Part shown: positions 1,185-13,436 of the stretch, piece after piece
How positions within the stretch are numbered: position 1 is the first letter of the stretch
Layout: each line of letters starts with the position of its first letter
Assembly (NCBI RefSeq): GCF_937127095.1
Contig: NZ_CAKZLP010000059.1
Span: 1,128-65,127, forward strand
Direction: 5' to 3'
Origin: an uncultured Amphritea sp.
GTDB taxonomy: Bacteria > Pseudomonadota > Gammaproteobacteria > Pseudomonadales > Balneatricaceae
DNA length: 64,000 bases
Made by a program: the position numbers and the translations under genes
Notes under the pieces: model-generated
Databases searched by the model: none
What the model saw: the letters and a program-made list of their open reading frames with translations, nothing else
Told to the model about the DNA's origin: nothing

Positions 1185-1553
1185 CGTTAGTCTCTCATTC
1201 AGCCCATTCCGGGGCTTTTCGAATGCAACGGTTTACAGAGTTCTATTTTGAATATCATCTCCATGATGGTGCGATTGACAGCATCGTTAGCCGAATGCTG
1301 TCGCCGTTTTGGGTATCTCATTATTTGATTTGTTGTGTGAGCAGATGGTAGATTGCTGCTCAAATAATAATTTAAACACTTGTTTGGTTTTTTTTGTCAT
1401 CTTTGAATTGACCCTGGTAGAACCTCTTCTATGTCAGAAACGTTTGTTCCGTTTCGGCCGGTGTCAGGGTGTTTCACAAGCTGTAATCCCGGCAGACCCG
1501 CTCAGGTCAGGTCAGGATTTGAAATACCTAATCAACGCTATCGGGAACCTGAA

Positions 1554-2705
1554 ATGAAATTAGTTCCGTTTGTGAAGTACACGTCATGCGGTAATAACTT
1601 TGTTATTGTTGATGCAACGGAGCAACCTCTGCTCTCCGAGGCTGAGATGTCGCGGTTTGCTTTTCAGGCGACCAATACCAGCTTTGGCGTCGGCTGCGAT
1701 AACCTGCTGGTTATTCAGCGTTGCAGTGTCGAAGTATTAAAGTCGATTGCTGATTCAAGAGGTTATTGGCACCGGCAGCCGGAAGCCGATCAGGCAGATT
1801 ATCTGTTTCGCATGTTTGAGCCGGATGGTGAAGAAGCTTTGTGTTGCGGTAATGGCTTAATGTGTGTTGCCAGTCATCTTTTGAATCAGCATGGTGTGTT
1901 TTCTGCCTCTATCCTGACGGAAATTCCCTTACATACCCCGAAAGTTATTCAGATTGGTGCGGGAAGTGATCAGCAGGGCGGCTGGGTTAATCTCGGACAC
2001 CCGCGCCGAACACCGGTTGAACTGGCTGCGTTTGGGCACTCACTTGCCTTCAGTCCGAATATTGACCTTTACCCGGAGATCATTATCCGCTTTCGTGCAG
2101 GTGATCTGCGTAATGTCGGCAATGCAACCCAACTGAAAATCAAAGCGCATCTGGTGTTTACCGGTGAACCCCATTTAGTGATCTTTCCGGATATTGATTT
2201 CTCCATCCCTGAACTGGCCGATTACATTTTCAGCAGTTCTGACCAGTGGCCAGTCAAAGATCGCCGTGAAAGTTTTGGTACCTGGCTGGTGGAGCATATC
2301 GGACAGTACCTTAATAACCACTATAAAACGTTATTTCCCGCCGGTATTAATGTCAATCTGGCTCGTCAACAAAGCTCCCGCGTGATTGAGAATCGCTGTT
2401 TTGAGCGGGGAATAAACAGGGAAACCCTTGCCTGCGGTACCGGCGCATTGGGTGTCGCTTATGTTTATAGTCAGATAAATCAGCTGGATTTGGATGAGAT
2501 TGATGTTCTGCCACACCGTTGCCGTTGGCACGACAAACAGGCGCAGATTCGAATACATCGCACTGATAGCGGGTGGTCGCTGGCAAGTGGCCCTGTGCTG
2601 CTGTTTGATGGGGTTTATCGGTTGTTATCTGTCAGTCATCCGGTGGTTGAACACCTCTCTGCTCAGCAGGATGACCCGGCTGAGCTTAAAAGGCTGACCT
2701 CATGA
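1554..2705 (+). CDS. DapF-like (PLP-independent) amino-acid racemase/epimerase, ~383 aa with insertions
   Basis: KYTSCGNNF, GVGCDNLLV, CCGNG (catalytic Cys 1), GEPH, ERGINRETLACGTG (catalytic Cys 2); similarity begins at ATG 1554, not 1431. Confidence 0.8.
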   Translation: MKLVPFVKYTSCGNNFVIVDATEQPLLSEAEMSRFAFQATNTSFGVGCDNLLVIQRCSVEVLKSIADSRGYWHRQPEADQADYLFRMFEPDGEEALCCGNGLMCVASHLLNQHGVFSASILTEIPLHTPKVIQIGAGSDQQGGWVNLGHPRRTPVELAAFGHSLAFSPNIDLYPEIIIRFRAGDLRNVGNATQLKIKAHLVFTGEPHLVIFPDIDFSIPELADYIFSSSDQWPVKDRRESFGTWLVEHIGQYLNNHYKTLFPAGINVNLARQQSSRVIENRCFERGINRETLACGTGALGVAYVYSQINQLDLDEIDVLPHRCRWHDKQAQIRIHRTDSGWSLASGPVLLFDGVYRLLSVSHPVVEHLSAQQDDPAELKRLTS

Positions 2706-4366
2706 GGGATAATTTAAGCGATGCCGGACCGATCAGACGGCTGTTCGCTGGCGGCCTGCAGCTGTGGTGTGTGCAGGCACTGGCGGTTTTTCTGCTGTTT
2801 GCCGCCTATCAGCGCGGGGAATTTGATATCCAGTTAAAATCGATAGCGGGTTGGGGGGCCGCTGCGACGCTGGTCTCAACGCTGTTATTGATGCTTGTGC
2901 TGCTCTACCGCCGTCATATGAACCCTCTGAGCGGTAGAGATGTCAGTCGGCTGATGATAGGGCTGAGTAGCGTTTCACTACTGTTACTTAGTTTGCAGCA
3001 TGTCTGGTTTGGTAATGTTGACCTCAATTTGTTTGATCTGGCGACGGTTATATTAATTTCGTTTCTGGTGTCACTGGAACTGGCTGTGTTGCAACAGAGC
3101 CGCTGCCGTTACCAGCTGCAGGGTTCTGAACGTTATAAGCAGATGCGGCCAGCGATCTTCCTGTTTTTGTTTGGCATCGATCTGTCGATGGCGTTTATTC
3201 CGTTGCATATGGAAGCGCTGCCCCGCAGTTTTAGCGGATTCAGTCCGGACCTGTTGATCGGCTTGCCGATATCGGTTGAGTTTTTCTGCGTTGGCGTTGC
3301 GATTTTGTTGTGTGGTGTGTGGCTGGACAAACAGGGTTGGAAGCCTCCGTTTTATACCGGCCTTGCTCTGACCGGGCTGGGCTGTCTCTATTCCTGGTTG
3401 GCACCCGATGCCGTGCAGTTCATTCTCTCCCGGGGGATATTAGGGTTCGGTTATGGTCTGACGTTGTTAGCGTCCCAGAGTTACGTTATTCGGCAAACGG
3501 ATAATCGGAATAAATCCCGGGGGCTGGCGCATCTGTTTGCCGGGCTCTACTCCGGCAGTATATGTGGTGCCGCCACCGGAGCTGTTCTCGCCGATCAGTT
3601 TGGTTATGGCCCGGTATTTCTGCTGGGTGCCTTTATCGTGTTCAGCGTGATGCTCTATGGCCGGTTAGTGCTGACGCCGGTCCCGGTTGCCCCGAAATCG
3701 CCGGACGTGCAGCAGACAGACAGTGTAACACCGCGCACAGCGACCTCCTTTATCAGGTTTCTCGGTGATCGTCAGGTATTGGCGGCGGTGCTGTTCAGTA
3801 GTATGCCCGCGTCAATCGCGGTGGTCGGTTTTCTTAACTATTTTAGTCCGGTTTACCTTAACCGGGCTGGGGTTGATGATGCCTCCATTGGTCAGGTGCT
3901 GATGCTGTTTGGCGTGATTCTCGCACTATTTGGCCCTGCTATCGGCCGTTTTGCTGATCTGAGTGAAACGAAGCGCATCCCGATCATCCTCGGCTGTCTG
4001 CTGGGTGGTTTAGCTTTTATGGTTTTCACTGTATTTGATGGGGTTATGGCGGTTACTCTGGCGATTCTGTTGCTGGGGCTTTCCAACTGTCTGGTGTTAT
4101 CTTCCCAGAGCGCGTTTGTCCTGAAGCAGCCGGTTACCACCGAGTATGGTGAGGGTAAGTCGATGGGGATATTCCGTTCCAGCAGCCGCATCGGCCAGAT
4201 GCTCGGCCCCGTGTTGTTTGCCAGCATAATAGCCATGGCTGATATCGAATACGGAGTGATGCTGTTTGGTGCGGCCTATCTGATTACAGCGGTTCTGTTT
4301 GCTGTGCTTACCTGGGCGCCAAAGGTTCGAATGACCTCTCAGGTTAAGGCCGTTTCTAATGAATAA
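2702..4366 (+). CDS. MFS transporter with an extra N-terminal membrane segment (~145 aa)
   Basis: 12-TM MFS pattern from MRPAIFLFLFGIDLSMAF; motif-A-like GVWLDKQGWK and GRFADLSETKR; ATGA overlap with the upstream gene. Confidence 0.85.
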   Translation: MRDNLSDAGPIRRLFAGGLQLWCVQALAVFLLFAAYQRGEFDIQLKSIAGWGAAATLVSTLLLMLVLLYRRHMNPLSGRDVSRLMIGLSSVSLLLLSLQHVWFGNVDLNLFDLATVILISFLVSLELAVLQQSRCRYQLQGSERYKQMRPAIFLFLFGIDLSMAFIPLHMEALPRSFSGFSPDLLIGLPISVEFFCVGVAILLCGVWLDKQGWKPPFYTGLALTGLGCLYSWLAPDAVQFILSRGILGFGYGLTLLASQSYVIRQTDNRNKSRGLAHLFAGLYSGSICGAATGAVLADQFGYGPVFLLGAFIVFSVMLYGRLVLTPVPVAPKSPDVQQTDSVTPRTATSFIRFLGDRQVLAAVLFSSMPASIAVVGFLNYFSPVYLNRAGVDDASIGQVLMLFGVILALFGPAIGRFADLSETKRIPIILGCLLGGLAFMVFTVFDGVMAVTLAILLLGLSNCLVLSSQSAFVLKQPVTTEYGEGKSMGIFRSSSRIGQMLGPVLFASIIAMADIEYGVMLFGAAYLITAVLFAVLTWAPKVRMTSQVKAVSNE

Positions 4367-5933
4367 CCGGCAGGTCGCTCCAGCGATGGGTATGGCTCAG
4401 CAGTTGCTCAACACGGTGCGTAAACAGGTTCCGGTGGTTGACAGGGTGTTGACGTCATCCGGTGATTGTTCGGTGTCTGAATATCTTCAGCAGATCTGTG
4501 AAGTCAGTCAGCAGAGTTATCAGTCGCGCTCAGATGTGGCTGAAGTGATGTACGAATATATAGCTCCTCTGTTGGGTGAACAGATGGCAGAACGTGCTGC
4601 CGCCGATTTTCTGCAACATCCGGTTGCACTGACAACCAACCATCATGGGGTTGATTTTTTTGCCCAGTCGGTTCAGGGCAGCTTGCTATTTGGGCTGGCT
4701 AAACGGCAGATTGAAGGGGTGACTACCATCCCGGTATTTTCCTGTGCGAATATCCCTCTGGATAATATTACCTATCCCCGAGGGGCTCTGCTTTATGGCT
4801 GTGATAGCAATGGGGCTAACTGGCCATTAAGGGTGCCTCTGTTTTCCAATAAGCTGAGGCGTCAACCGGTCGCGCGGGTTAAAGGGCTTGACCGGTCGAT
4901 GATACAGCAGGCGGCTAAGCGGGTGCGTGGAATGGTGGAAAAAGCGCTGAATCCTGTGCTGTTTGAGACGTTGCTGAACCTTCTGGAGAGTGAATATCTG
5001 GCTGAAGATGTGGTGTCGCAGAAGCGCTACTCTGCCCAATCTGTGATCTTAAACCAGCGTATCTGGACTCGACTCTTCTGCTCCTCTGCTACTATGCCTG
5101 ATCTGGTGACTATTGAGCTGGAGAAGCTGGCCGAAGGGTTATTGCTTAAAGACCTGCAGCACGATAACAGTCTTGCCTCGGTGTTATTTGCCGGGCCGCT
5201 GATAACAACGCTCTTCCAACGACTGGATACTATTTCCGGATGCTGGAGCCGGACGTTGCTGGAACAGCGTTGGGCCGACAGGCATTCAGCCGAACCGCTG
5301 AAAACGTCGGCTTGTGGCACCTTTGGTTTCTGGGGTGTTGATAGTCGTTTTCGCCGGATTCCACTGATGTTAAGTGAACGGTTGGGTCAGCCAATATTAT
5401 TAGGCTGTGATGATAATGGTGAGGAGTATCACTATAGCCTGGAGCCCACGGCGCTTTCTCAGGCTTTGCGTGATGGGCGGCTAATGCCCTCGGTGTTCAG
5501 CTGTTTTCTGGTTATCGCGCTGGCACGGGGAGTGACCTGTTTGGGGGGGTATTATCAGGCAGAGTATCTGCCGCAGATGCAGACGGGTGTTGCTGAGGTG
5601 TTGCAGCAGCATGATCTGGCTGAACTAGCAGTGCAGATTTCAGCGAGTGTTACCGACAGTTATCTATCGGGTATGCAGGCGATTATGGTTGCAGAGGCTG
5701 ATACTTTGTTGCCAGCGGGGCTGGTTGAGATACTGAGCAGTGGTGCAATCACCGCGGCGGAGCTTGAGTTGATCGCAAATATCAATCTGCGTGATGCGCA
5801 TTACGCCTCACTGGCAGAAACCGTCGCTGATGTTATGCCGACCGGGCAATTGGGAGACCACTGGCTTAAGCCATTGATGATAGATCAGTGGGATTTACTT
5901 TCAGCGAAAGTCGCTTTAAGACGGCTGAGTTAA
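4359..5933 (+). CDS. Uncharacterised 524-aa soluble protein, possibly a distant BshC-like/HUP-fold ligase
   Basis: Long ORF with host-like codon use overlapping the MFS stop; motifs LTTNHHG, IPVFSCAN, RLMPSV...LGGYYQAEYLPQ; functional call is by-eye inference. Confidence 0.5.
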   Translation: MNNRQVAPAMGMAQQLLNTVRKQVPVVDRVLTSSGDCSVSEYLQQICEVSQQSYQSRSDVAEVMYEYIAPLLGEQMAERAAADFLQHPVALTTNHHGVDFFAQSVQGSLLFGLAKRQIEGVTTIPVFSCANIPLDNITYPRGALLYGCDSNGANWPLRVPLFSNKLRRQPVARVKGLDRSMIQQAAKRVRGMVEKALNPVLFETLLNLLESEYLAEDVVSQKRYSAQSVILNQRIWTRLFCSSATMPDLVTIELEKLAEGLLLKDLQHDNSLASVLFAGPLITTLFQRLDTISGCWSRTLLEQRWADRHSAEPLKTSACGTFGFWGVDSRFRRIPLMLSERLGQPILLGCDDNGEEYHYSLEPTALSQALRDGRLMPSVFSCFLVIALARGVTCLGGYYQAEYLPQMQTGVAEVLQQHDLAELAVQISASVTDSYLSGMQAIMVAEADTLLPAGLVEILSSGAITAAELELIANINLRDAHYASLAETVADVMPTGQLGDHWLKPLMIDQWDLLSAKVALRRLS

Positions 5934-5998
5934 TGTTATTCTGTTTTAAACGGGCGTATACAAAAAAATAATGTTCCTGTAAGCGTATAGGAGAGGAT

Positions 5999-7147
5999 AT
6001 GCGATCTATTAAGTATTTTGGTCTGGTGTTGCTCTGGCTGTTAATCATGCCTGTAGCCCAGGCAGGTGACAAAGGGATCTTTTCAACCGCACCGGTGACG
6101 CATAACGGTGAGCGTTGGAGAATCGGTTATTTTGAGGGTGGCGAGTATGTCGACTATCAGAAAATACTGGTCGAAACCGTCAAAGGGTTGATGCAGCTGG
6201 GCTGGATTAAAAAAACAGAAATCCCCGCACAGCAAGGGGAGCAGACAGATCAGTTATGGCAATGGCTGCAGCAGGGGGTGCAAAGTGAATATGTTGAATT
6301 TGTCGCAGATGCCCACTATTCCGCGCAGTGGGACGAAACCACACGTGCCCAGCTAACTGAGACGGTTATTGATCGTCTCAATCAGGGAGATATCGACCTG
6401 ATGATCGCGATGGGGACATGGGCAGGTAAATCTCTGTCTAATGACCGCCACCATACTCCGACAATGGTTTTATCCACCAGTGATCCGCTGTCCAGCGGGA
6501 TAATCAAAAGTGTTAGCGATTCAGGGTATGACCATGTTCATGCCACGGCTGATCCTAACCGTTATGACCGCCAGGTGAGGGTTTTTGATGATATCGTCAA
6601 CTTCAAAAAACTCGGTGTTGCTTATGAAGACACCAAAAATGGGCGCAGTTACGCTGCCCTGGATGTAATTGAAAAACTGAGCCGCGAGCGGGGCTTCGAA
6701 GTTGTTGGCTGTCACACACTGAGTGATATTAGTGACACTGCTCGCGCTGAGGCGAGTGTAGTGAGTTGTTTTCGTAAACTGGCATCAGAGGCTGACGCTA
6801 TCTATGTGACCGTGCAGGGAGGAGTGAACGGAAATAGTATTGGTCAGTTGGTCAAAATTGCCAATGAATATCGGGTGCCAACCTTTTCACAGTCCGGCTC
6901 TGAAGAGGTAAAAAAAGGATTGTTGCTGAGTCTGTCCCAGGCGGGATTCCGCTATGTGGGTGAATTTCACGCATCTACATTTGCTAAAGTATTTAACGGC
7001 GCTCTGCCTAATCAACTGACGCAGCTGTTTGAAGAACCACCGCGCATGGCGGTAAATCTGAAAACGGCTGAGATCGTTGGTTTTAATCCGCCGTTACTGC
7101 TGCTGGGTGCCGCGGATGAGGTCTACCGGGAAATTCCTGCAGAATAA
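5999..7147 (+). CDS. Periplasmic ABC-type substrate-binding protein (ABC_sub_bind-like), copy 1
   Basis: Signal peptide ending VAQA; WRIGYFEGGEY, AMGTWAG, DPNRYDRQV, GRSYA, VNLKTAEIVG. Confidence 0.8.
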   Translation: MRSIKYFGLVLLWLLIMPVAQAGDKGIFSTAPVTHNGERWRIGYFEGGEYVDYQKILVETVKGLMQLGWIKKTEIPAQQGEQTDQLWQWLQQGVQSEYVEFVADAHYSAQWDETTRAQLTETVIDRLNQGDIDLMIAMGTWAGKSLSNDRHHTPTMVLSTSDPLSSGIIKSVSDSGYDHVHATADPNRYDRQVRVFDDIVNFKKLGVAYEDTKNGRSYAALDVIEKLSRERGFEVVGCHTLSDISDTARAEASVVSCFRKLASEADAIYVTVQGGVNGNSIGQLVKIANEYRVPTFSQSGSEEVKKGLLLSLSQAGFRYVGEFHASTFAKVFNGALPNQLTQLFEEPPRMAVNLKTAEIVGFNPPLLLLGAADEVYREIPAE

Positions 7148-7174
7148 AGCCATATCAAGGACATAGTACTGGCG

Positions 7175-8332
7175 ATGATAGTTAAACGAGGAAAGAAGAG
7201 GCTGTGTGCCTGGCTGGCAGGGATGCTTTTGCTACTGTCAGGGGTTGCGCTTCATGGGGCCGAGTTGGGTGACGCTCCTATGCTTAATCAAGGCCAGAAA
7301 TGGCGTGTGGCCTACTATCAGGGGGGCGAATATTATGATTATTACCAATATCTGAAGGCCACTGCTGAGGGGTTGATGGCACGGGGGTGGATCGCTCCAC
7401 AGACTATTCCCAATGAGCTGACAACCGCCTGGGATCTGTGGCATTGGCTAACAGAGACTGCGCATAGCGATTACCTTGAGTTTCTGTCGGATGGTTTTTA
7501 TAGCGCAGGCTGGGACCGGGGCTATCGGGTGGAGTTGCATGAACGGGTTATAACCCGGTTAAATCAGCATGGAGAGGTCGACTTGCTGTTAGCCATGGGC
7601 AGTTGGGCGGGGGTCGATATGGCCGTTGATCGTCACTCTGTTCCGACCATGGTGGTGTCTGTTAACGATCCCCGCAGTTTAGGTCTTATTCGTGATCAGG
7701 GGGAGGCCTATGAGCATATCTATGTTACCGAGGACCCACAGCGTTATGAGCGCCAGGTCTCCCTGTTTCACGACCTTATTCGCTTTAAAGCTCTGGGGGT
7801 CGCCTATGAAGACAGCTTTGAAGGCAGAAGTTACGCTTCAATTGAGATGATCGAGAGGTTAGCTCAAGAAAGAGGCTTCAAAGTGATTAGCTGCTTCACC
7901 CAAAGTGATGTAACCGATCAGGAGCAGGCTAACGATTCGGTGATTGGCTGTTTCAGCGATCTCGCCGAGCGGGTCGATGCGCTCTATGTGACGACACAGG
8001 GTGGGGTTAATGATGAAACCATTCCTGTGCTGGTGGAGATTGCTAATCAGCATCGTATTCCAACTTTTTCACAGTATGGTCAGCGTGAAGTGAAACAGGG
8101 GTATCTGATGAGCCTGTCGCAGTCCGAAGGGTTTATAGATGAGGGCAAGATACTCTCTGATGTTGCAATACGTATCTTGAAGGGCGCCGAGCCTGCGTCA
8201 TTAGAGAATCATTCGGCAGAGGCAAACCGGATAACCCTTAACCTGAAAACGGCAGAGCAGATTGGGCTTTACCTGAATGCAGAACTTTTAGCCGCAGCTG
8301 ACCAGCTTTACTGGCAAATAGAGCAACCTTGA
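7175..8332 (+). CDS. Periplasmic ABC-type substrate-binding protein, paralogous copy 2
   Basis: Signal peptide; WRVAYYQGGEY, AMGSWAG, DPQRYERQV, GRSYA, LNLKTAEQIG align with copy 1. Confidence 0.8.
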   Translation: MIVKRGKKRLCAWLAGMLLLLSGVALHGAELGDAPMLNQGQKWRVAYYQGGEYYDYYQYLKATAEGLMARGWIAPQTIPNELTTAWDLWHWLTETAHSDYLEFLSDGFYSAGWDRGYRVELHERVITRLNQHGEVDLLLAMGSWAGVDMAVDRHSVPTMVVSVNDPRSLGLIRDQGEAYEHIYVTEDPQRYERQVSLFHDLIRFKALGVAYEDSFEGRSYASIEMIERLAQERGFKVISCFTQSDVTDQEQANDSVIGCFSDLAERVDALYVTTQGGVNDETIPVLVEIANQHRIPTFSQYGQREVKQGYLMSLSQSEGFIDEGKILSDVAIRILKGAEPASLENHSAEANRITLNLKTAEQIGLYLNAELLAAADQLYWQIEQP

Positions 8333-8341
8333 GTACTGAGT

Positions 8342-11203
8342 ATGTTGTCCAGTTTCAAATTTAAAATTATCGCCCTGATTGTTGCAGTGCTGTTGTGTAC
8401 TGCAGCCGGGGTGATGTATTTCACCCAGCGGGATGTGGGGCAGGCGATGCTGGTGGCAGAGCAGAAATCTGCGCGCAACGTGCTGCAGCTGGCTGATCTG
8501 AATATCCGTGCCGGGTATGAGCAGCTGATCAGCGAAAAGGTAGATATTCTCAGTAAAATCAAAGCGGATATGCGTCAGTTGACACGTCTGGGACAGACGG
8601 TTCTGGATAGCTATGCCGGGGTCTCGGCGAAGGGTCTGCTCAGTGAAGATGCTGCTAAAGAGATTGCTCGCCAATGGCTGTCGGATGTGACGTTTAATAA
8701 TGGTGACCTGATCCTGTTTGGTGGGGATGGGGTTATTGTGGGGTCAACTGATTCGAAGCTTACCGATACCTCGATAGCGGGTTTGCGAGACCTTAAGGGA
8801 CGCCAGATACATCAGGCGATGCGTTTTGACCAGTTAAAACCTGAGGGTGACAGCGGTATCTTTTTCTGGCACAAGCCCGGTGAGCCCGAGGGCGGGCGGT
8901 ATATGGGCTATTTTCTTCCGTTAGCAAACTGGGGCTGGACCATGGGGATCATTGTCAGCTTTGCGGATGTCGAGGAGGAGAGCCAGAAACAGATGAACCG
9001 TATTGTGGATGCGCTGCGTCTGACCTTCAATAAACTTCAGGTTGCTGAGACTGGCTATGCAATTCTGTTTACGGGAGATCGAAAAATACTGATTGAGCCT
9101 CCCAGACAGACTCTGAGTGAAACGATTTCGACGGATGATCTCGACTGGAATAAAGCGGGGGTACTGGAGCAGATTATTGCCGCGGATAAACGGGGGGCCG
9201 ACTCTGTCAGCCATCAGAGTGCGTTTACCGGGGGGCGGCAGGTACAGATTTTCTTCAGTTATTTTAAAGCGTTTGACTGGTATTCCGCAGTGGTGGTGCC
9301 GGTTGAAGAGATTGCGGCACCGGGTCGGGCGGTGGTGGCTCAGCAGAGCCTGATTATCGGATTGATATTTCTGGCCAGTATCAGTGCTGCGTTTATTCTT
9401 GTTTTCCGCATGGCAGCACCGCTTAATAGTCTGGCATCTTATGCCAAATCACTGCCTGATCAGGATTTTATTCGTCCCGGCGAACAGAGTCAGAAAATAC
9501 TCAGGCTGGCACGGAAAAACCCCGATGAGATTGGCCGTCTGGCAGAATCATTTCTGTTTATGGAAAAGGCGATCAGGTGCACCATTCAACAGGTGCATAA
9601 AGAGAAAGAGATTGCGATTGATGCCAGTAAAGCGAAAAGTGAGTTTCTGGCAACCATGAGTCATGAGATCCGTACGCCGATGAATGGTGTGCTGGGAATG
9701 ACCGATCTGGTGCTGGATACCGATCTGACCAATGAGCAACGACGCTTTATACAGATGATTCGCTATTCCGGCGAAGGTTTGCTGGAGATCATCAATGACA
9801 TTCTCGATTTCTCCAAAATTGAAGCGGGGAAATTGCATCTGGATTACCGGCCACTGAATCTGGCCGAGCTGATTCAGACTCAGGTTGCAATTCTTAATCT
9901 TCAGGCGCAAAAGAAGGGGCTGACTCTGACCTGTAATCTGCCCCCTGAGCTGAACATCGTTATCATAGGCGATACTGTCAGGTTGCGTCAGGTGCTCACC
10001 AACCTGATCGGTAATGCGATTAAATTTACCCGGGATGGCTCAATTAAAGTCACCGCGGTGGTGTTTGAAGAGACCGATCAGGATATCTCTTTTCAGCTAC
10101 GGGTTGCGGATACCGGTGTGGGCATCTCCCCTGAACATCAGAGTATGATTTTTGAATCCTTTGCTCAGGCTGATAACACCACAACGAGAAACTATGGTGG
10201 CACCGGGCTCGGCTTGGCGATCTCTCGACAGCTGATTGAGATGATGGGTGGGTCGATAGATTTTTCCAGCGAGCCGGGTCGAGGCACCACCTTCTGGTTT
10301 GGTTTGAAGCTAGCGAAAACTGACCTGCTGCCTGAATCGGAACTGTCTGAGCTTGAGCCCCTGTCTGCCCAGGGGGGTATTGAGGGGCATATACTGCTGG
10401 TAGAGGATCATCCTGTAAATCAGGAGTATGCACTGCAGACCCTCAGAGGATTAGGTGTAGGTGTTGATCTCGCCGCAAATGGAGTGCAGGCGTTAAAGAT
10501 GATCTGCGAGAATGACTATCAGCTGGTGTTGATGGATTGTCAGATGCCGGAGATGGATGGCTATCAGGCGACCACCGAGATTCGCAAACGGGAAGCCACG
10601 GAGCAACGTCCCCGTCTACCGGTTATCGCGCTCACCGCGAATGCGATGGCGGATGACCGTCAGCGTTGTCTGCAAGCGGGGATGGATGACTATCTGGCAA
10701 AACCGTTTGATAAACAACAGATTACGCATATTCTCAAACACTGGTTGCCGAAGAGTGTAACGGACGATACCGGTGTTACCTCCACCGAGGCTGATCACCC
10801 GATTAGCTATACCGACCGGCCGTTTTCCCTCGATAAAGCGGTCATCGATGAACATGTGATATCGCAGCTAATTGAGATGGATGCTAATGGTGCTTTTCTG
10901 CGCAAAATTATTGATGCCTATCTGGAAAAATCCCCTGATGATCTGAGTCGCTTGACAGTCGCATTGTCAGAGCAGAATCCTGAGATGCTGAGAGTTGCTG
11001 CACATAGTTTCAAATCCAGTAGTTATAACCTTGGTGCGACGACGCTGGCGGAGCTATGTAAAGCGTTGGAAAAGGTTGGCCGGGATGGGGTGCTGGAGCA
11101 GGCGCCAGTATTGTTGCAAGAGATAGAGAGTGAGTATCAGAAGGCCGAACAGATATTGATGACCATCAGACAGACAGAAGGCGCGCATGACGGACGTAAA
11201 TGA
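8342..11203 (+). CDS. Hybrid sensor histidine kinase (TM-Cache-TM-HAMP-HisKA-HATPase-REC-Hpt)
   Basis: H-box [55 protein letters not shown], Hpt AAHSFKSSS. Confidence 0.92.
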
Positions 11204-13436
11204 TAACAGGCCGACCCCGTTCCGGGTGCTGGTGGTTGATGATGATCTCACCGCCCGGATACTGGCCACCCACTCACTCGAACAAGAGGGGTTTGAGGTT
11301 CTGTTAGCGGATAATGGCGTTATTGCGCTGCAGACCTTTCAGGAGGCACAACCAGATATTGTTCTGATGGATGTGGAGATGCCGGGTCTTAACGGCTTTG
11401 ATGTCTGTCGTCAGTTGCGCAGTATGCCCTGTGGAAAATTGGTGCCGATTCTGATGGCAACTGGCCAGGATGATATCGATTCCGTCCGGCAGGCCTATGC
11501 TGCCGGAGCCACCGATTTTGTCTCAAAACCCTTCAACTGGAAGGTGCTCGGACACCGTCTCAATTATATGATTCGTGCCAGCAATACTACTGAACAGTTG
11601 CGCCAGTTGCAGAAGAGTGAAACGCGCCTGGGTAATGCTCAGCGGATTGCCCGGCTGGGCAACTGGGAGTGGCATCTGAAAAGCGGGGAGATCTACTGGT
11701 CGGATCAGTTTTACCAACTGCTGGGTGGTAAACGGGGGCGGACTCAGACCGGTATGCGCACCTTTTTACGTTGTGTTCCTGCGAATGAAAGGCCGCAGCT
11801 ACGACACTGGTTCAAACAACTGCTGAACTGTCGTTACTCCGGCTTTATGTCCGGGATTAATCACAGTATCAGTCTGGCCGGGCAGGATGTTAAGAATGTA
11901 CAGCATCAGGCTGAGGTTTTTTGTGATGATCAGGGCAATGCCACGATTATTGCCGGAACTATGCTGGATGTGTCTGAGCTGAAGCGGGCACAGGATCAGG
12001 TACTGAAACTGGCGCGATTCGACAGCCTGACAGGCCTGTCAAACCGCAGTGTCTTCTGTGATCGGGTGCAGTTGGCAATCGATCAGGCCGAACGCAGAGG
12101 AGGCCTTGGCGCAGTACTGTTTCTTGATCTGGATAATTTTAAGCGAATTAACGATACCTTTGGTCACGGCATTGGTGATCTGTTATTGCAGGAGGTGGCA
12201 CAACGATTGACGCAAAGTGTTCGTTATACCGACCGGATCAGTGATGACTCAGACGCGGGTGCTGCTGAGCAAACCGATTTAGACCACCGTGTTGATCTGT
12301 ACACGCACAATAAAGATCGGCAGGTCCGGGTCCCACTGGTGGCCCGGTTTGGCGGTGATGAGTTTACCGTTTTGCTACCGGAGATTAATCAGATTCGGGA
12401 TGCTGAAAATGTTGCCCGCAGGGTTCTCGAATCGATAGGCCTTTCAATTGACCTTGCCGGTCATGAGGTGGTGATTACTCCCAGCATTGGCATCGCTATA
12501 TTTCCCCATCATGGGGAAAACGTAGACAGCCTGATGAAAAACGTCGACGCCGCTATGTATTATGTAAAGCATACGGGTAAAAATGGCTATGAGCTGTTTG
12601 TGAAGTCGATGAATGTCGTGGCTAAGCGTCGGCTGGAACTGGAAAGTCATCTGCGTCATGCCATTGAAACGAATGAGTTGTCACTTAACTATCAGCCTCA
12701 GGTTGATATGCGCAGCGGTAGAATCGTCGGGGTTGAAGCTCTGCTGCGCTGGAACAGCCTCCAGCTGGGTTTTGTCTCGCCGGTTGAGTTTATTCCCATC
12801 GCGGAAGAAACCGGACTGATTACTCCTATTGGCGAATGGGTGATGCGTGAAGCCTGTCGGCAAACCCGGCAGTGGCAACTGGACGGGCTGCCGCACATCC
12901 GGGTGGCGGTTAACCTGTCCGTGCGTCAGTTTGCCAAGCAAAACCTGGAAAAACTGGTGAGTCAGGTGTTGCAGGACACGGGCTTGCCAGTTAACTGTCT
13001 GGAGCTTGAGATCACTGAAAACATGCTGATGGATGATGTTGAAGGGTCAGTTGAGACTCTGCACCGCTTAAAAGCGCTGGGTGTGCAGCTGGCGATAGAT
13101 GATTTTGGCACCGGCTATTCCAGTCTCAGCTATCTGAAGCGCTTTCCTATCGACCGGTTAAAAGTGGACCGCTCTTTTATTACCCATGTGACCACAGACC
13201 CCGGCGATGCCTCGGTCACTCAGGCGATTATCGCCGTGGCTCATAATCTGGGGTTGAGCGTTACGGCAGAGGGTGTGGAGGAAGAGGCTCAGCTGGCTTT
13301 TCTGCAGCAATACGCCTGCGAAGAGGTGCAAGGGTTCCTGTTCAGTAAACCGCTCAAGGCGGATGATCTGGCCACGTTGCTCAGAACCACCAACGGCTAT
13401 ATGTCACTCAAAACCGCGAGGACCACTGAGGACTAG
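11187..13436 (+). CDS. REC-PAS-GGDEF-EAL c-di-GMP enzyme (response regulator)
   Basis: [18 protein letters not shown]; ARFGGDEF; VEALLRW; [10 protein letters not shown]; ~35-aa acidic insertion before GGDEF. Confidence 0.92.

Follow-up and report, generated by a model that had tools for sequence, protein, structure and literature searches.

Protein X (P0001), the product of a gene at positions 4,359 to 5,933 of the forward strand, is not a detectable relative of BshC, and the likeness of its motifs to those of BshC is no more than chance. The protein belongs to an unannotated and widely distributed family (1,159 representatives at 50% identity) which is encoded in a conserved, patchy, accessory module spread by horizontal transfer. 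The reading of this module that we favour, although we would not yet call it probable, is that X makes a small molecule from the D-amino acid of a racemase, and that this molecule is exported and then sensed by binding proteins and a kinase. All positions refer to the window, i.e., the whole stretch of 64,000 nucleotides that was analyzed.

Gene cluster of the window and its counterparts

Seven co-directional genes of the window, all on the forward strand, were separated by gaps of 9-65 bp or overlapped by 4, 8, or 17 bp. The racemase and the transporter that the first-pass annotation had placed next to X were both found upstream, in overlapping reading frames. The gene at positions 1,431 to 2,705 encodes a PLP-independent racemase/epimerase of the DapF fold (PF01678, E = 6.9e-18), with a likely true start at 1,554 that gives a protein of 383 aa (383-414 aa in its homologs). 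It scored 108.6 bits against TIGR00652, under the cut-off of 114.65, and a canonical dapF scoring 312.8 bits was present on contig 24 of the same genome; the gene of the window is therefore an extra paralog and not the housekeeping dapF. An MFS transporter of 554 aa (positions 2,702 to 4,366; PF07690, E = 4.5e-35), for which a close solved structure was not found, shares a 4-bp ATGA overlap with the DapF-like gene and an 8-bp overlap with the gene of X, and is translationally coupled to both neighbours.

Downstream of X, two paralogous periplasmic binding proteins of family PF04392 were encoded at positions 5,999 to 7,147 (E = 6.7e-15; Sec signal peptide, N-terminus MRSIKYFGLVLLWLLIMPVAQA; relatives 3lkv, 6hni, and 3lft in PDB) and 7,175 to 8,332 (E = 3e-19; signal peptide), and an ABC permease or ATPase partner for them was absent from the cluster. 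Proteins of PF04392 with solved structures bind L-Trp, L-Tyr, or L-Phe (PMC10443332). These genes are followed by a hybrid sensor histidine kinase (positions 8,342 to 11,203) with transmembrane, periplasmic dCache, HisKA, HATPase, REC, and Hpt regions, and by a REC-PAS-GGDEF-EAL response regulator with c-di-GMP output (positions 11,187 to 13,436) whose gene overlaps that of the kinase by 17 bp. Promoter and terminator scans gave no excess over the shuffled expectation.

The context of X was surveyed in 79 genomic loci, and neighbour families were tallied over 814 ORFs of 81 loci. In 45 of the 51 loci with enough flank, the gene next upstream of X was that of the MFS transporter; a PF04392 gene occurred at 3 kb or less downstream in 53 of 66 (103 such genes in 62 loci), a kinase homologous to that of the window in 46 of 81, many of these loci being incomplete, and c-di-GMP-type regulators in 38. 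Three loci (L001, L002, and L003) matched the gene order of the window. In the cluster of L003 the kinase is followed by a plain REC gene, and a REC-GGDEF-HD-type gene lies upstream. In L004 and L006, X occurred without the MFS transporter or a binding protein. The recurrent neighbours among the 81 loci were limited to X itself, MFS, PF04392, kinase, racemases, c-di-GMP regulators, GNAT-like proteins, and methyltransferases, and no ABC permease, ATP-grasp protein, or adenylating enzyme recurred. A Ddl-like gene near L001, considered as an ATP-grasp partner, was not recurrent and was discarded. Linkage of the putative enzyme with an exported binding protein and GGDEF/EAL proteins was also present in loci of Gammaproteobacteria, Thermodesulfobacteriota, and Bacillota.

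A racemase was found near X in 43 of the 51 adequately flanked loci, and its type varied. DapF-type racemases accompanied X in 45 loci, a 355-aa protein with only the Ala_racemase_N domain in seven, and a full alanine racemase was encoded as a separate gene beside X in one (L082) and fused to X in P0240 and P0250 (L004 and L005). When the racemase types were placed on the tree of X, each had changed at least twice, and thus the racemase has undergone non-orthologous displacement several times. Around 15% of the adequately flanked loci had no racemase nearby, and the Ala_racemase_N-only type covered only some of them. A class III aminotransferase was rejected as a fourth type, as it occurred in just two close relatives (L066 and L067). 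Putative tailoring genes were linked as well: a SAM-methyltransferase gene was directly downstream of X in five loci and fused to it in P0253, and a GNAT-like gene lay between the MFS gene and X in nine.

The first-pass annotation had taken X for a possible amino-acid ligase and the likely biosynthetic core of the cluster, partly from its motifs and partly from its neighbours. The gene context supports the view of X as an amino-acid-linked enzyme and as the core of the module, since X occurs beside or fused to racemases of three unrelated types and, in most genomes, has a transporter on one side and binding proteins on the other; the motifs lend it no support.

Protein X and its family

The reading frame of X was open and began with ATG, giving the 524 aa previously assigned, and it contained the three motifs reported before, in the same order: ALTTNHHG (residues 90-97, positions 4,626 to 4,649), IPVFSCAN (residues 124-131, positions 4,728 to 4,751), and the block RLMPSV-x15-LGGYYQAEYLPQ (residues 374-406, positions 5,478 to 5,576), in which RLMPSV corresponds to residues 374-379 (positions 5,478 to 5,495) and LGGYYQAEYLPQ, starting 15 residues after it, to residues 395-406 (positions 5,541 to 5,576). 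The protein is predicted to be cytoplasmic and of alpha/beta type. In the first motif a predicted strand (89-93) leads into an N94-H95-H96-G97 loop, where H95 showed no variation across 124 sequences; in the second, a predicted strand (123-128) is followed by C129 and then by a conserved IPLDN-TYP-G loop (N136, P140, and G142). The third block is predicted to form a short strand, a helix ending at R390-G391, and a strand at 393-396 that includes C394, with G396-G397-Y-Y-Q400-x-x-Y403 at the start of a helix; G396, Q400, and Y403 were invariant in the 124 sequences.

Every motif thus falls at the C-terminal end of a predicted beta-strand, the usual place of the active site in alpha/beta enzymes. 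When 44 and 124 homologs were aligned, the columns with no or almost no variation fell mostly in the motifs (N94, H95, G97, D99, C129, N136, P377, R390, G396, Q400, and Y403), and the invariant polar residues were H95, Q227, E255, D265, Q400, and Y403, plus N94, N136, and R390. Judging from the predicted secondary structure, the invariant residues may share one pocket. C129 was invariant in the 44-sequence set and conserved at less than 90% in the set of 124, which weakened the case for this residue as a cysteine nucleophile.

X and 43 relatives gave no match in Pfam, NCBIfam, PHROGs, or PADLOC, and PDB sequence searches with X alone, with a 44-sequence profile, and with a 124-sequence profile returned nothing real; matches to an "oocyte-expressed protein" (E about 0.5-1) were dismissed as noise. 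A nucleotide-binding motif was not recognisable in X, and literature searches on the module, on PF04392 proteins with kinases, and on D-amino-acid autoinducers yielded no account of the family. The absence of a catalytic family match in every library searched would fit X being not an enzyme but a cytoplasmic protein that regulates the signalling system or serves as its scaffold. We consider this very improbable, however, in view of the polar residues kept invariant at strand ends, of the fusion of X with a racemase in some members and with a methyltransferase in another, and of the fusion with alanine racemase at L004, where signalling genes were absent nearby. Within the genus, 17 of 24 genomes carried X, and none of the 17 other genera of the order did; the family occurred as well in Thermodesulfobacteriota, Bacillota, Bacteroidota, and others, and the branching of its tree disagreed with taxonomy. 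Culturable carriers include Marinobacterium jannaschii DSM 6295 and Amphritea atlantica DSM 18887.

Comparison with BshC and class I synthetases

X had been read by eye as a distant BshC, which is a candidate bacillithiol synthase. This claim failed in Pfam, HMM cross-search, hhalign, and Foldseek alike, the results of which were at noise or decoy level or empty. The comparison sets consisted of 10 BshC sequences from Bacteroidota and 14 archaeal sequences of class I lysyl-tRNA synthetase (LysRS). The consensus motifs of BshC (V.TGQQ.G; V.P.FW.A.EDHD; P..FS..V..RP..QD...AYVAGPGEI.Y.AQ) had few scattered letters in common with X. None of 44 members of the X family matched PF10079 at E ≤ 1 (curated cut-off 27 bits), and a six-frame search of the own genome with the same model returned no BshC whereas three control genomes were positive. 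An HMM of the 10 real BshC sequences gave 4.3 bits or less against 256 X proteins. In hhalign, X aligned to the same 10 sequences with probabilities of 0.34% (A1) and 2.2% (A3), in two differing registers, and with scores of 20-27 as compared to 22 for reversed-sequence decoys. The BshC structure 4WBD was not among the 50 Foldseek PDB matches listed for either model of X. BshC and class I LysRS share a Rossmann-like core, and the hhalign and HMM tests were equally blind to this positive-control pair; these two tests therefore do not bear on a relation at the level of fold, and what is excluded is membership in the family.

X and BshC are alike in their length class of about 540 aa, in being cytoplasmic alpha/beta proteins with a known or presumed action on an amino acid, and loosely in the order of their motifs (strand-T-x-polar-polar-G; P-x-F; P-x-x-F-S; Gly-rich turn before a helix). 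They differ in the signature residues of BshC (TGQQ, FW.A.EDHD, and GPGEI.Y.AQ) and in their context, which is thiol biosynthesis with bshA and bshB for BshC and racemase, MFS, binding proteins, and kinase for X. The match by eye was a false lead, and X proteins should not receive a BshC-like annotation.

At the level of fold, two AlphaFold models of the family were compared (pLDDT 92 and 90), the second being that of a full-length member with 32% identity, which was chosen as a divergent replicate over domain-only refolding, since Foldseek derives its E-values from local alignment and refolded domains would not have improved them. Foldseek searches of both against PDB and of one against BFVD gave nothing at E ≤ 1e-3, so the structural match to BshC or an aminoacyl-tRNA synthetase expected from the first-pass annotation was not obtained at significance. 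The top PDB match of model 1 was class I LysRS (1irx_A; E = 0.042, prob 0.94), a weak one (TM 0.34, rmsd 10.7, 420 columns) and the sole synthetase among the matches listed for this model. It was not repeated with model 2, whose top E was 0.99 and for which synthetases and BshC were absent among the matches listed. The top BFVD match (A0A345MNG5, prob 0.98) is an unnamed protein. Cross-tests of X against class I LysRS (PF01921 family) by hhalign and HMM were at the level of noise.

These data bear on the possibility that X is a very divergent HUP-fold ligase, similar to class I synthetases or BshC, which would activate an amino acid with ATP and attach it to an acceptor. We regard this as distinctly unlikely. 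The 1irx_A and BFVD matches are in its favour, as is the layout of the protein: compared with the textbook HUP fold of class I synthetases (PF01921, 1IRX), X likewise has conserved loops after core beta-strands, its strand-His/Gly loop-helix (89-101) and strand-GG-helix (393-400) match the class I arrangement, and its third and fourth core strands are separated by a large insertion, at the place that CP1 takes in these enzymes. Moreover, linkage to a racemase implies that the substrate is an amino acid, and the cluster has no further energy-supplying enzyme that is conserved. Against this stand the weakness and isolation of the 1irx_A match, its absence from the matches listed for a second confident model, and sequence tests that were all noise. 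Unlike class I synthetases, X also lacks a KMSKS motif and any evidence of an anticodon-binding domain, and its likeness to the HIGH signature is partial. After strand 89-93 it reads T-x-N-H-H-G-V-D, with H95 invariant and G97 conserved at 90% or more (invariant in the 44- and 38-sequence sets), and with Val at the fourth position where H-x-G-H has His. No KMSKS-type lysine loop was found and no lysine occupied an invariant or near-invariant (≥90%) column of any alignment; the loop nearest to the KMSKS position is a conserved Y-L-S-G-M-Q (435-440). A ligase of this kind would be compatible with a signal pathway, to which it adds a specific claim on fold and chemistry.

Proposed function of the module

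In the signal pathway that we favour, X would be an enzyme with a D-amino acid as its substrate. A dedicated racemase, here the DapF-fold paralog, would supply this D-amino acid, and X would convert it to a small product, ligation or condensation being the leading guess; in some lineages a GNAT-like acyltransferase or a methyltransferase may modify the product further. The MFS protein, which is co-translated, would export the product, and the two orphan PF04392 proteins would capture it outside the cytoplasmic membrane. On sensing it, they would signal via the dCache hybrid kinase to the REC-GGDEF-EAL regulator, and c-di-GMP would change. It is well established that binding proteins can drive kinases (PMC8050422). 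In this scheme the cell would make a signal of its own and detect it with a dedicated receptor, a logic close to that of ScrABC. Some observations speak against this pathway. As the cluster has no conserved energy-supplying enzyme, activation of the substrate would fall to X, in which a nucleotide-binding motif was not recognisable; L004 and L006 have X without the MFS transporter or a binding protein; and some loci have no racemase nearby.

As racemases work in both directions, these genes would serve equally for uptake and breakdown of a compound containing a D-amino acid. In this main rival explanation, which we hold to be unlikely but in need of serious consideration, the MFS protein imports the compound from the environment, X cleaves or transforms it, and the racemase turns the D-amino acid set free into the L-form for assimilation; the binding proteins and the kinase sense the same external compound and steer behaviour under c-di-GMP control. 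The MFS transporter could equally be an importer, long-form MFS partners have an extracytoplasmic loop of ~180 aa that could be a sensor, and the invariant His, Glu, Asp, and Tyr of X would also suit a hydrolase or lyase; nutrient-sensing binding proteins are common (PMC8050422). Conversely, the module lacks a conserved transcriptional regulator, and its output is c-di-GMP and not induction of the operon; methyltransferase and GNAT-like genes and fusions usually belong with the tailoring of a biosynthetic product and not with breakdown; and the coupling of racemase, MFS, and X, together with the fusions of alanine racemase to X, fits channelling to a product. Even a catabolic module would make X a new enzyme acting on compounds that contain a D-amino acid.

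Staphylopine biosynthesis (Cnt) provides a precedent for part of this arrangement, its DapF-fold racemase CntK being a histidine and not a diaminopimelate racemase (PMC11602996). In both systems a DapF-fold racemase feeds, or would feed, a biosynthetic enzyme whose product leaves through an MFS exporter. This combination in staphylopine (PMC11602996) and the conserved His and Cys of X would agree with a metallophore pathway, in which X makes a chelator from the D-amino acid and the binding proteins recapture the exported molecule as a metal complex. Such a role seems to us highly improbable: no counterparts of CntL (nicotianamine-synthase-like) or CntM (opine dehydrogenase), no ABC importer, and no metal regulator recurred among the 814 ORFs of 81 loci, and the binding proteins are of PF04392, a family that binds amino acids, and have a kinase rather than a transporter as their partner.

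For the signalling pathway, the closest parallels in logic were ScrABC and LuxS/LuxP-LuxQ. In Vibrio parahaemolyticus, one operon encodes ScrA, an enzyme proposed to make an extracellular signal, the periplasmic binding protein ScrB, and the GGDEF-EAL protein ScrC, which turns over c-di-GMP (PMC10269520). The window presents the same type of linkage across its genes from 1,431 to 13,436, with a putative signal-making enzyme, periplasmic binding proteins, and c-di-GMP output in one operon. ScrA is an aminotransferase-family enzyme whereas X has no Pfam family match; ScrB acts on ScrC without an intermediate, whereas the X module would interpose a dCache hybrid kinase and a phosphorelay. The X module in addition contains a racemase and an MFS transporter and uses PF04392 binding proteins. 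With LuxS/LuxP-LuxQ (AI-2) the module would share a self-made small molecule and the control of a hybrid histidine kinase through a periplasmic binding protein. The synthase and binding-protein families are unrelated, and the X module differs in having synthase, exporter, and receptor genes in one operon and c-di-GMP as output.

A further-reaching proposal, that X represents a new enzyme family, maybe with a fold absent from PDB, whose product from a D-amino acid is a new class of diffusible signal within a widespread, horizontally mobile c-di-GMP cassette for signalling between cells, appears possible but doubtful to us. If true, an unrecognised enzyme family and D-amino-acid signalling chemistry would extend over more than 1,000 sequence clusters in several phyla, and would be unusually tractable, with the genes for producer, exporter, and receptor side by side. 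Orphan PF04392 binding proteins beside kinases would gain a function, and the non-canonical D-amino acids released by bacteria an additional natural role. The hosts of such a cassette would be marine and sediment bacteria (Oceanospirillales, Psychromonas, Hahella, Competibacter, Desulfobacterales, Syntrophobacterales, and some Bacillota and Bacteroidota).

Sequence and predicted fold of the X family

The open reading frame at 4359-5933 (+) was confirmed and encodes a protein of 524 aa, which we call X, as we do the large family to which it belongs. Its translation contained the four motifs that the first-pass annotation had read as a BshC-like series, in the same order and with the same spacing: ALTTNHHG (residues 90-97), IPVFSCAN (124-131), RLMPSV (374-379) and, 15 residues after the latter, LGGYYQAEYLPQ (395-406). 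These motifs were also the most conserved blocks of the family. A word-indexed search recovered over 214 homologs of full length (500-555 aa), every one named 'hypothetical' and none with a Pfam domain, and an exhaustive profile search gave 1,159 representatives at 50% identity, 577 of them with E ≤ 1e-30. In an alignment of 124 sequences (mean column identity 31%), H95, Q227, E255, D265, G396, Q400, and Y403 were strictly invariant, and N94, G97, N136, R390, G391, C394, and C295 were conserved in at least 90%. Pfam, NCBIfam, PHROGs, and PADLOC gave no match to any family member tested, and no PDB chain sequence was matched by X as a single sequence or by either of two profiles (44 and 124 sequences).

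The BshC relationship was examined with 10 real BshC genes from Bacteroidota genomes and 14 real class I LysRS genes. The BshC motifs cited in the annotation were roughly correct as compared with the real consensus (TGQQ; P.FW; P..FS..V...GPGEI.Y.AQ); the similarity of X to them was not significant, its hhalign scores being at decoy level. The 44-sequence profile was aligned with BshC at a probability of 0.34% (P = 0.18) and the 124-sequence profile at 2.2% in another register (X 382-513 against BshC 110-229), and reversed-sequence decoys scored on par (22 vs. 20-27 for X and BshC). Cross-searches of HMMs, with filters off, between X and the BshC or class I LysRS sets reached at most 4.3 bits, and PF10079 had no match in the genome of the window, control genomes being positive. 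X is not a BshC member, and this assignment was rejected, none of the defining features tested having been found. BshC and class I LysRS share a Rossmann-like core. This pair was equally invisible to the same sequence tests, which thus exclude X from the family while leaving room for an ancient common fold.

A confident AlphaFold2 model of X was obtained with the 44-sequence alignment as input (pLDDT 92.2, pTM 0.92), and structures were compared by Foldseek alone. Nothing in PDB matched the model at E ≤ 1e-3; the best match was the class I LysRS 1irx_A (E = 0.042, prob 0.94, TM 0.34, rmsd 10.7, 420 columns), the only synthetase among the 50 PDB matches listed, which did not include BshC. In BFVD, one unnamed 511-aa protein appeared at E = 3.3e-3. 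The replicate model of a Bacillota member 32% identical to X (locus L082; pLDDT 89.8, pTM 0.91) gave a best E value of 0.99 against PDB, with neither a synthetase nor BshC among the matches listed. Thus, the HUP fold proposed by the annotation is favored by the 1irx_A match of one model, whereas the L082 replicate speaks against it, and the evidence for placing X among class I synthetase/HUP proteins ranges from ambiguous to negative. X would be unlikely to be an ATP-dependent ligase on a very divergent HUP-like scaffold: the structural lead is a single borderline match that was not reproducible, because the L082 model gave no synthetase, and X lacks the HIGH and KMSKS signatures.

The secondary structure of X is alpha/beta, and every conserved motif comes after a predicted strand (89-93 before NHHG, 123-128 before C-x-N, 248-253 before E255, and 393-396 before GGYYQ). 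This placement is as would be expected for the active site of an alpha/beta enzyme and does not in itself identify the fold.

Gene neighborhood and racemase partners

Genomic context is the strongest evidence on X. The order in the window is DapF-like gene, MFS gene (2702-4366), X, two PF04392 binding protein genes, dCache hybrid kinase, and REC-PAS-GGDEF-EAL regulator; the DapF-like and MFS genes overlap by 4 bp (ATGA), and the MFS gene in turn shares 8 bp at its 3' end with X. The L001 locus of an unclassified gammaproteobacterium and the L002 locus of Hahella had this gene order too, and a Thermodesulfobacteriota MAG (L003) had the same genes with its sole binding-protein gene placed upstream of the racemase. 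In a species-level genome collection that yielded 79 loci, X was immediately preceded by an MFS gene in 45 of the 51 with enough flank and had a racemase nearby in 43 of 51, and a PF04392 gene was located at most 3 kb downstream of it in 53 of 66; these fractions are lower bounds because many loci are from MAGs with short flanks. Unsupervised clustering of the 814 ORFs flanking X recovered as recurrent families X (78 loci), MFS (63), PF04392 (62; 103 genes), dCache kinase (46), DapF-like (46), and c-di-GMP-type regulators (38), plus three minor families; ATP-grasp enzymes, adenylating enzymes, ABC permeases, and ABC ATPases were not among the recurrent ones. Upstream lies a PhnE-like phosphonate ABC permease gene (21-1184), a neighbor specific to Amphritea and outside the conserved module; clusters of that region (216, 301, and 495 aa) occurred in 8-12 loci only, in the upstream regions of Amphritea loci L007-L015.

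The racemase partner of X has been exchanged several times. In the distant members P0240 (898 aa) and P0250 (887 aa), X is joined to an entire PLP-dependent alanine racemase in one polypeptide, and in L005 such a fusion has a HAMP sensor on one side and, on the other, a PF04392 gene and then an MFS gene. In L082, from a Bacillota MAG, X is flanked by a stand-alone alanine racemase gene, which runs into its start, and by a PF04392 gene behind it; seven loci without the DapF-like gene contain a 355-aa protein with Ala_racemase_N only. In a maximum-likelihood analysis, the X tree required at least two changes for each of the full-Alr and Alr_N-only labels and showed strong clustering of the DapF label. 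Histidine racemases HisR and CntK are DapF-fold enzymes with other amino-acid substrates (PMC11602996). The DapF-like protein of the window scored 103 bits against TIGR00652, under the cut-off, and the canonical dapF (312.8 bits) is on another contig of the same genome, so that the former is a dedicated paralog.

Three unrelated racemase types, together with the fusions, argue that X either depends on a racemised amino acid or supplies one. X is probably an enzyme acting with the substrate or the product of the racemase; a non-enzymatic role is unlikely. The racemase linkage and the fusions support the amino-acid-linked role that the first-pass annotation had proposed, whereas the BshC homology on which it was based was not borne out (hhalign and HMM scores at noise).

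The probable start of the DapF-like gene (1431/1554-2705) is the ATG at 1554 (MKLVPFVKY..., 383 aa, the length of homologs) and not 1431, from which translation would add 41 N-terminal residues that had no counterpart among its relatives. The class III aminotransferase fold includes some amino-acid racemases. A gene of this fold adjoins the PF04392 gene in L067 (12870-14264, -) and L066 (19771-21141, -), two close relatives from the clade without a racemase nearby, and could be a fourth racemase solution in these two only.

Other partners were optional. In five loci (L045:11533-12201, L031:11610-12242, L039, L047, and L058), the gene immediately after X encoded a SAM-methyltransferase of about 212 aa, and in P0253 (731 aa) a methyltransferase was fused to X, which suggests that the product is methylated in some lineages. 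Nine loci (including L048:9147-9953 and L057:8957-9772), all without the DapF-like gene, had a member of a 268-aa family with a weak GNAT match (PF00583, E = 3.4e-4) between the MFS gene and X. Both look like tailoring enzymes. Outside Amphritea, the MFS partner of most lineages has 760-850 aa (L001:5672-7954, L003:5525-8008, L057:6424-8979), with one N-terminal TM helix, an extracytoplasmic loop of about 180 aa without Pfam match, and a 12-TM core; this form looks like a 'sensor-MFS chimera', and the MFS protein of the window (554 aa) has no such loop.

Putative sensing genes and a possible pathway

Both PF04392 proteins of the window carry Sec signal peptides, and their closest solved relatives are 3lkv, 6hni, and 3lft; in a survey of solved binding proteins, PF04392 ligands were L-Trp, L-Tyr, and L-Phe (PMC10443332). 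Their genes have no transporter partner and precede the kinase with its periplasmic dCache domain, whose phosphorelay, from gene order and domains, ends in the GGDEF-EAL regulator. Control of kinases by binding proteins is an established principle (PMC8050422). In Vibrio parahaemolyticus, the ScrABC operon combines an enzyme, a binding protein, and a c-di-GMP enzyme, with an autoinducer-like product (PMC10269520). The X module would follow the same logic as ScrABC and LuxS-LuxPQ, although its parts are unrelated to theirs.

We tentatively propose a pathway in which the racemase would make a D-amino acid, X would turn it into a small molecule that in some cases is methylated or acylated, the MFS protein would export this molecule, and the PF04392 proteins and the dCache kinase would sense it, thereby altering c-di-GMP; as a complete chain, this is quite possible rather than probable. 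The main rival, an uptake or catabolic module, draws on the reversibility of racemases and on an MFS transport direction that could be either, and appears rather doubtful. Metallophore synthesis by the module is unlikely. Within the proposed signaling pathway, the final regulator (11187-13436) has a split GGDEF Pfam match (residues 277-349 and about 384-466), leaving an insertion of about 35 residues in the cyclase domain; judged from sequence, its GGDEF may be degenerate, with the EAL phosphodiesterase as the active output.

Distribution and novelty

A search of the searchable literature found no description of the X family or module. We regard X as a new protein family by comparison with Pfam, NCBIfam, PHROGs, PADLOC, PDB, and BFVD, its function being inferred from context only. 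X was present in 17 of 24 Amphritea genomes, with one copy each, and in another Amphritea genome it persisted only as a 49-residue C-terminal remnant (G087:C37:299089-299232), which suggests a recent loss of the module. It was absent from 17 other genera of the same order and was found in Psychromonas, Hahella, Motiliproteus, Marinobacterium, Competibacter, many Desulfobacterales and Syntrophobacterales, and some Bacillota and Bacteroidota; the X tree was incongruent with taxonomy. The module is accessory and laterally moving.

A full X with GNAT-like and PF04392 genes was also observed on a 6-kb contig (L064) of a MAG labeled Candidatus Micrarchaeota (G003), a genome that carries an archaeal class I LysRS, and reflects a horizontal gain by an archaeon or, alternatively, faulty binning.
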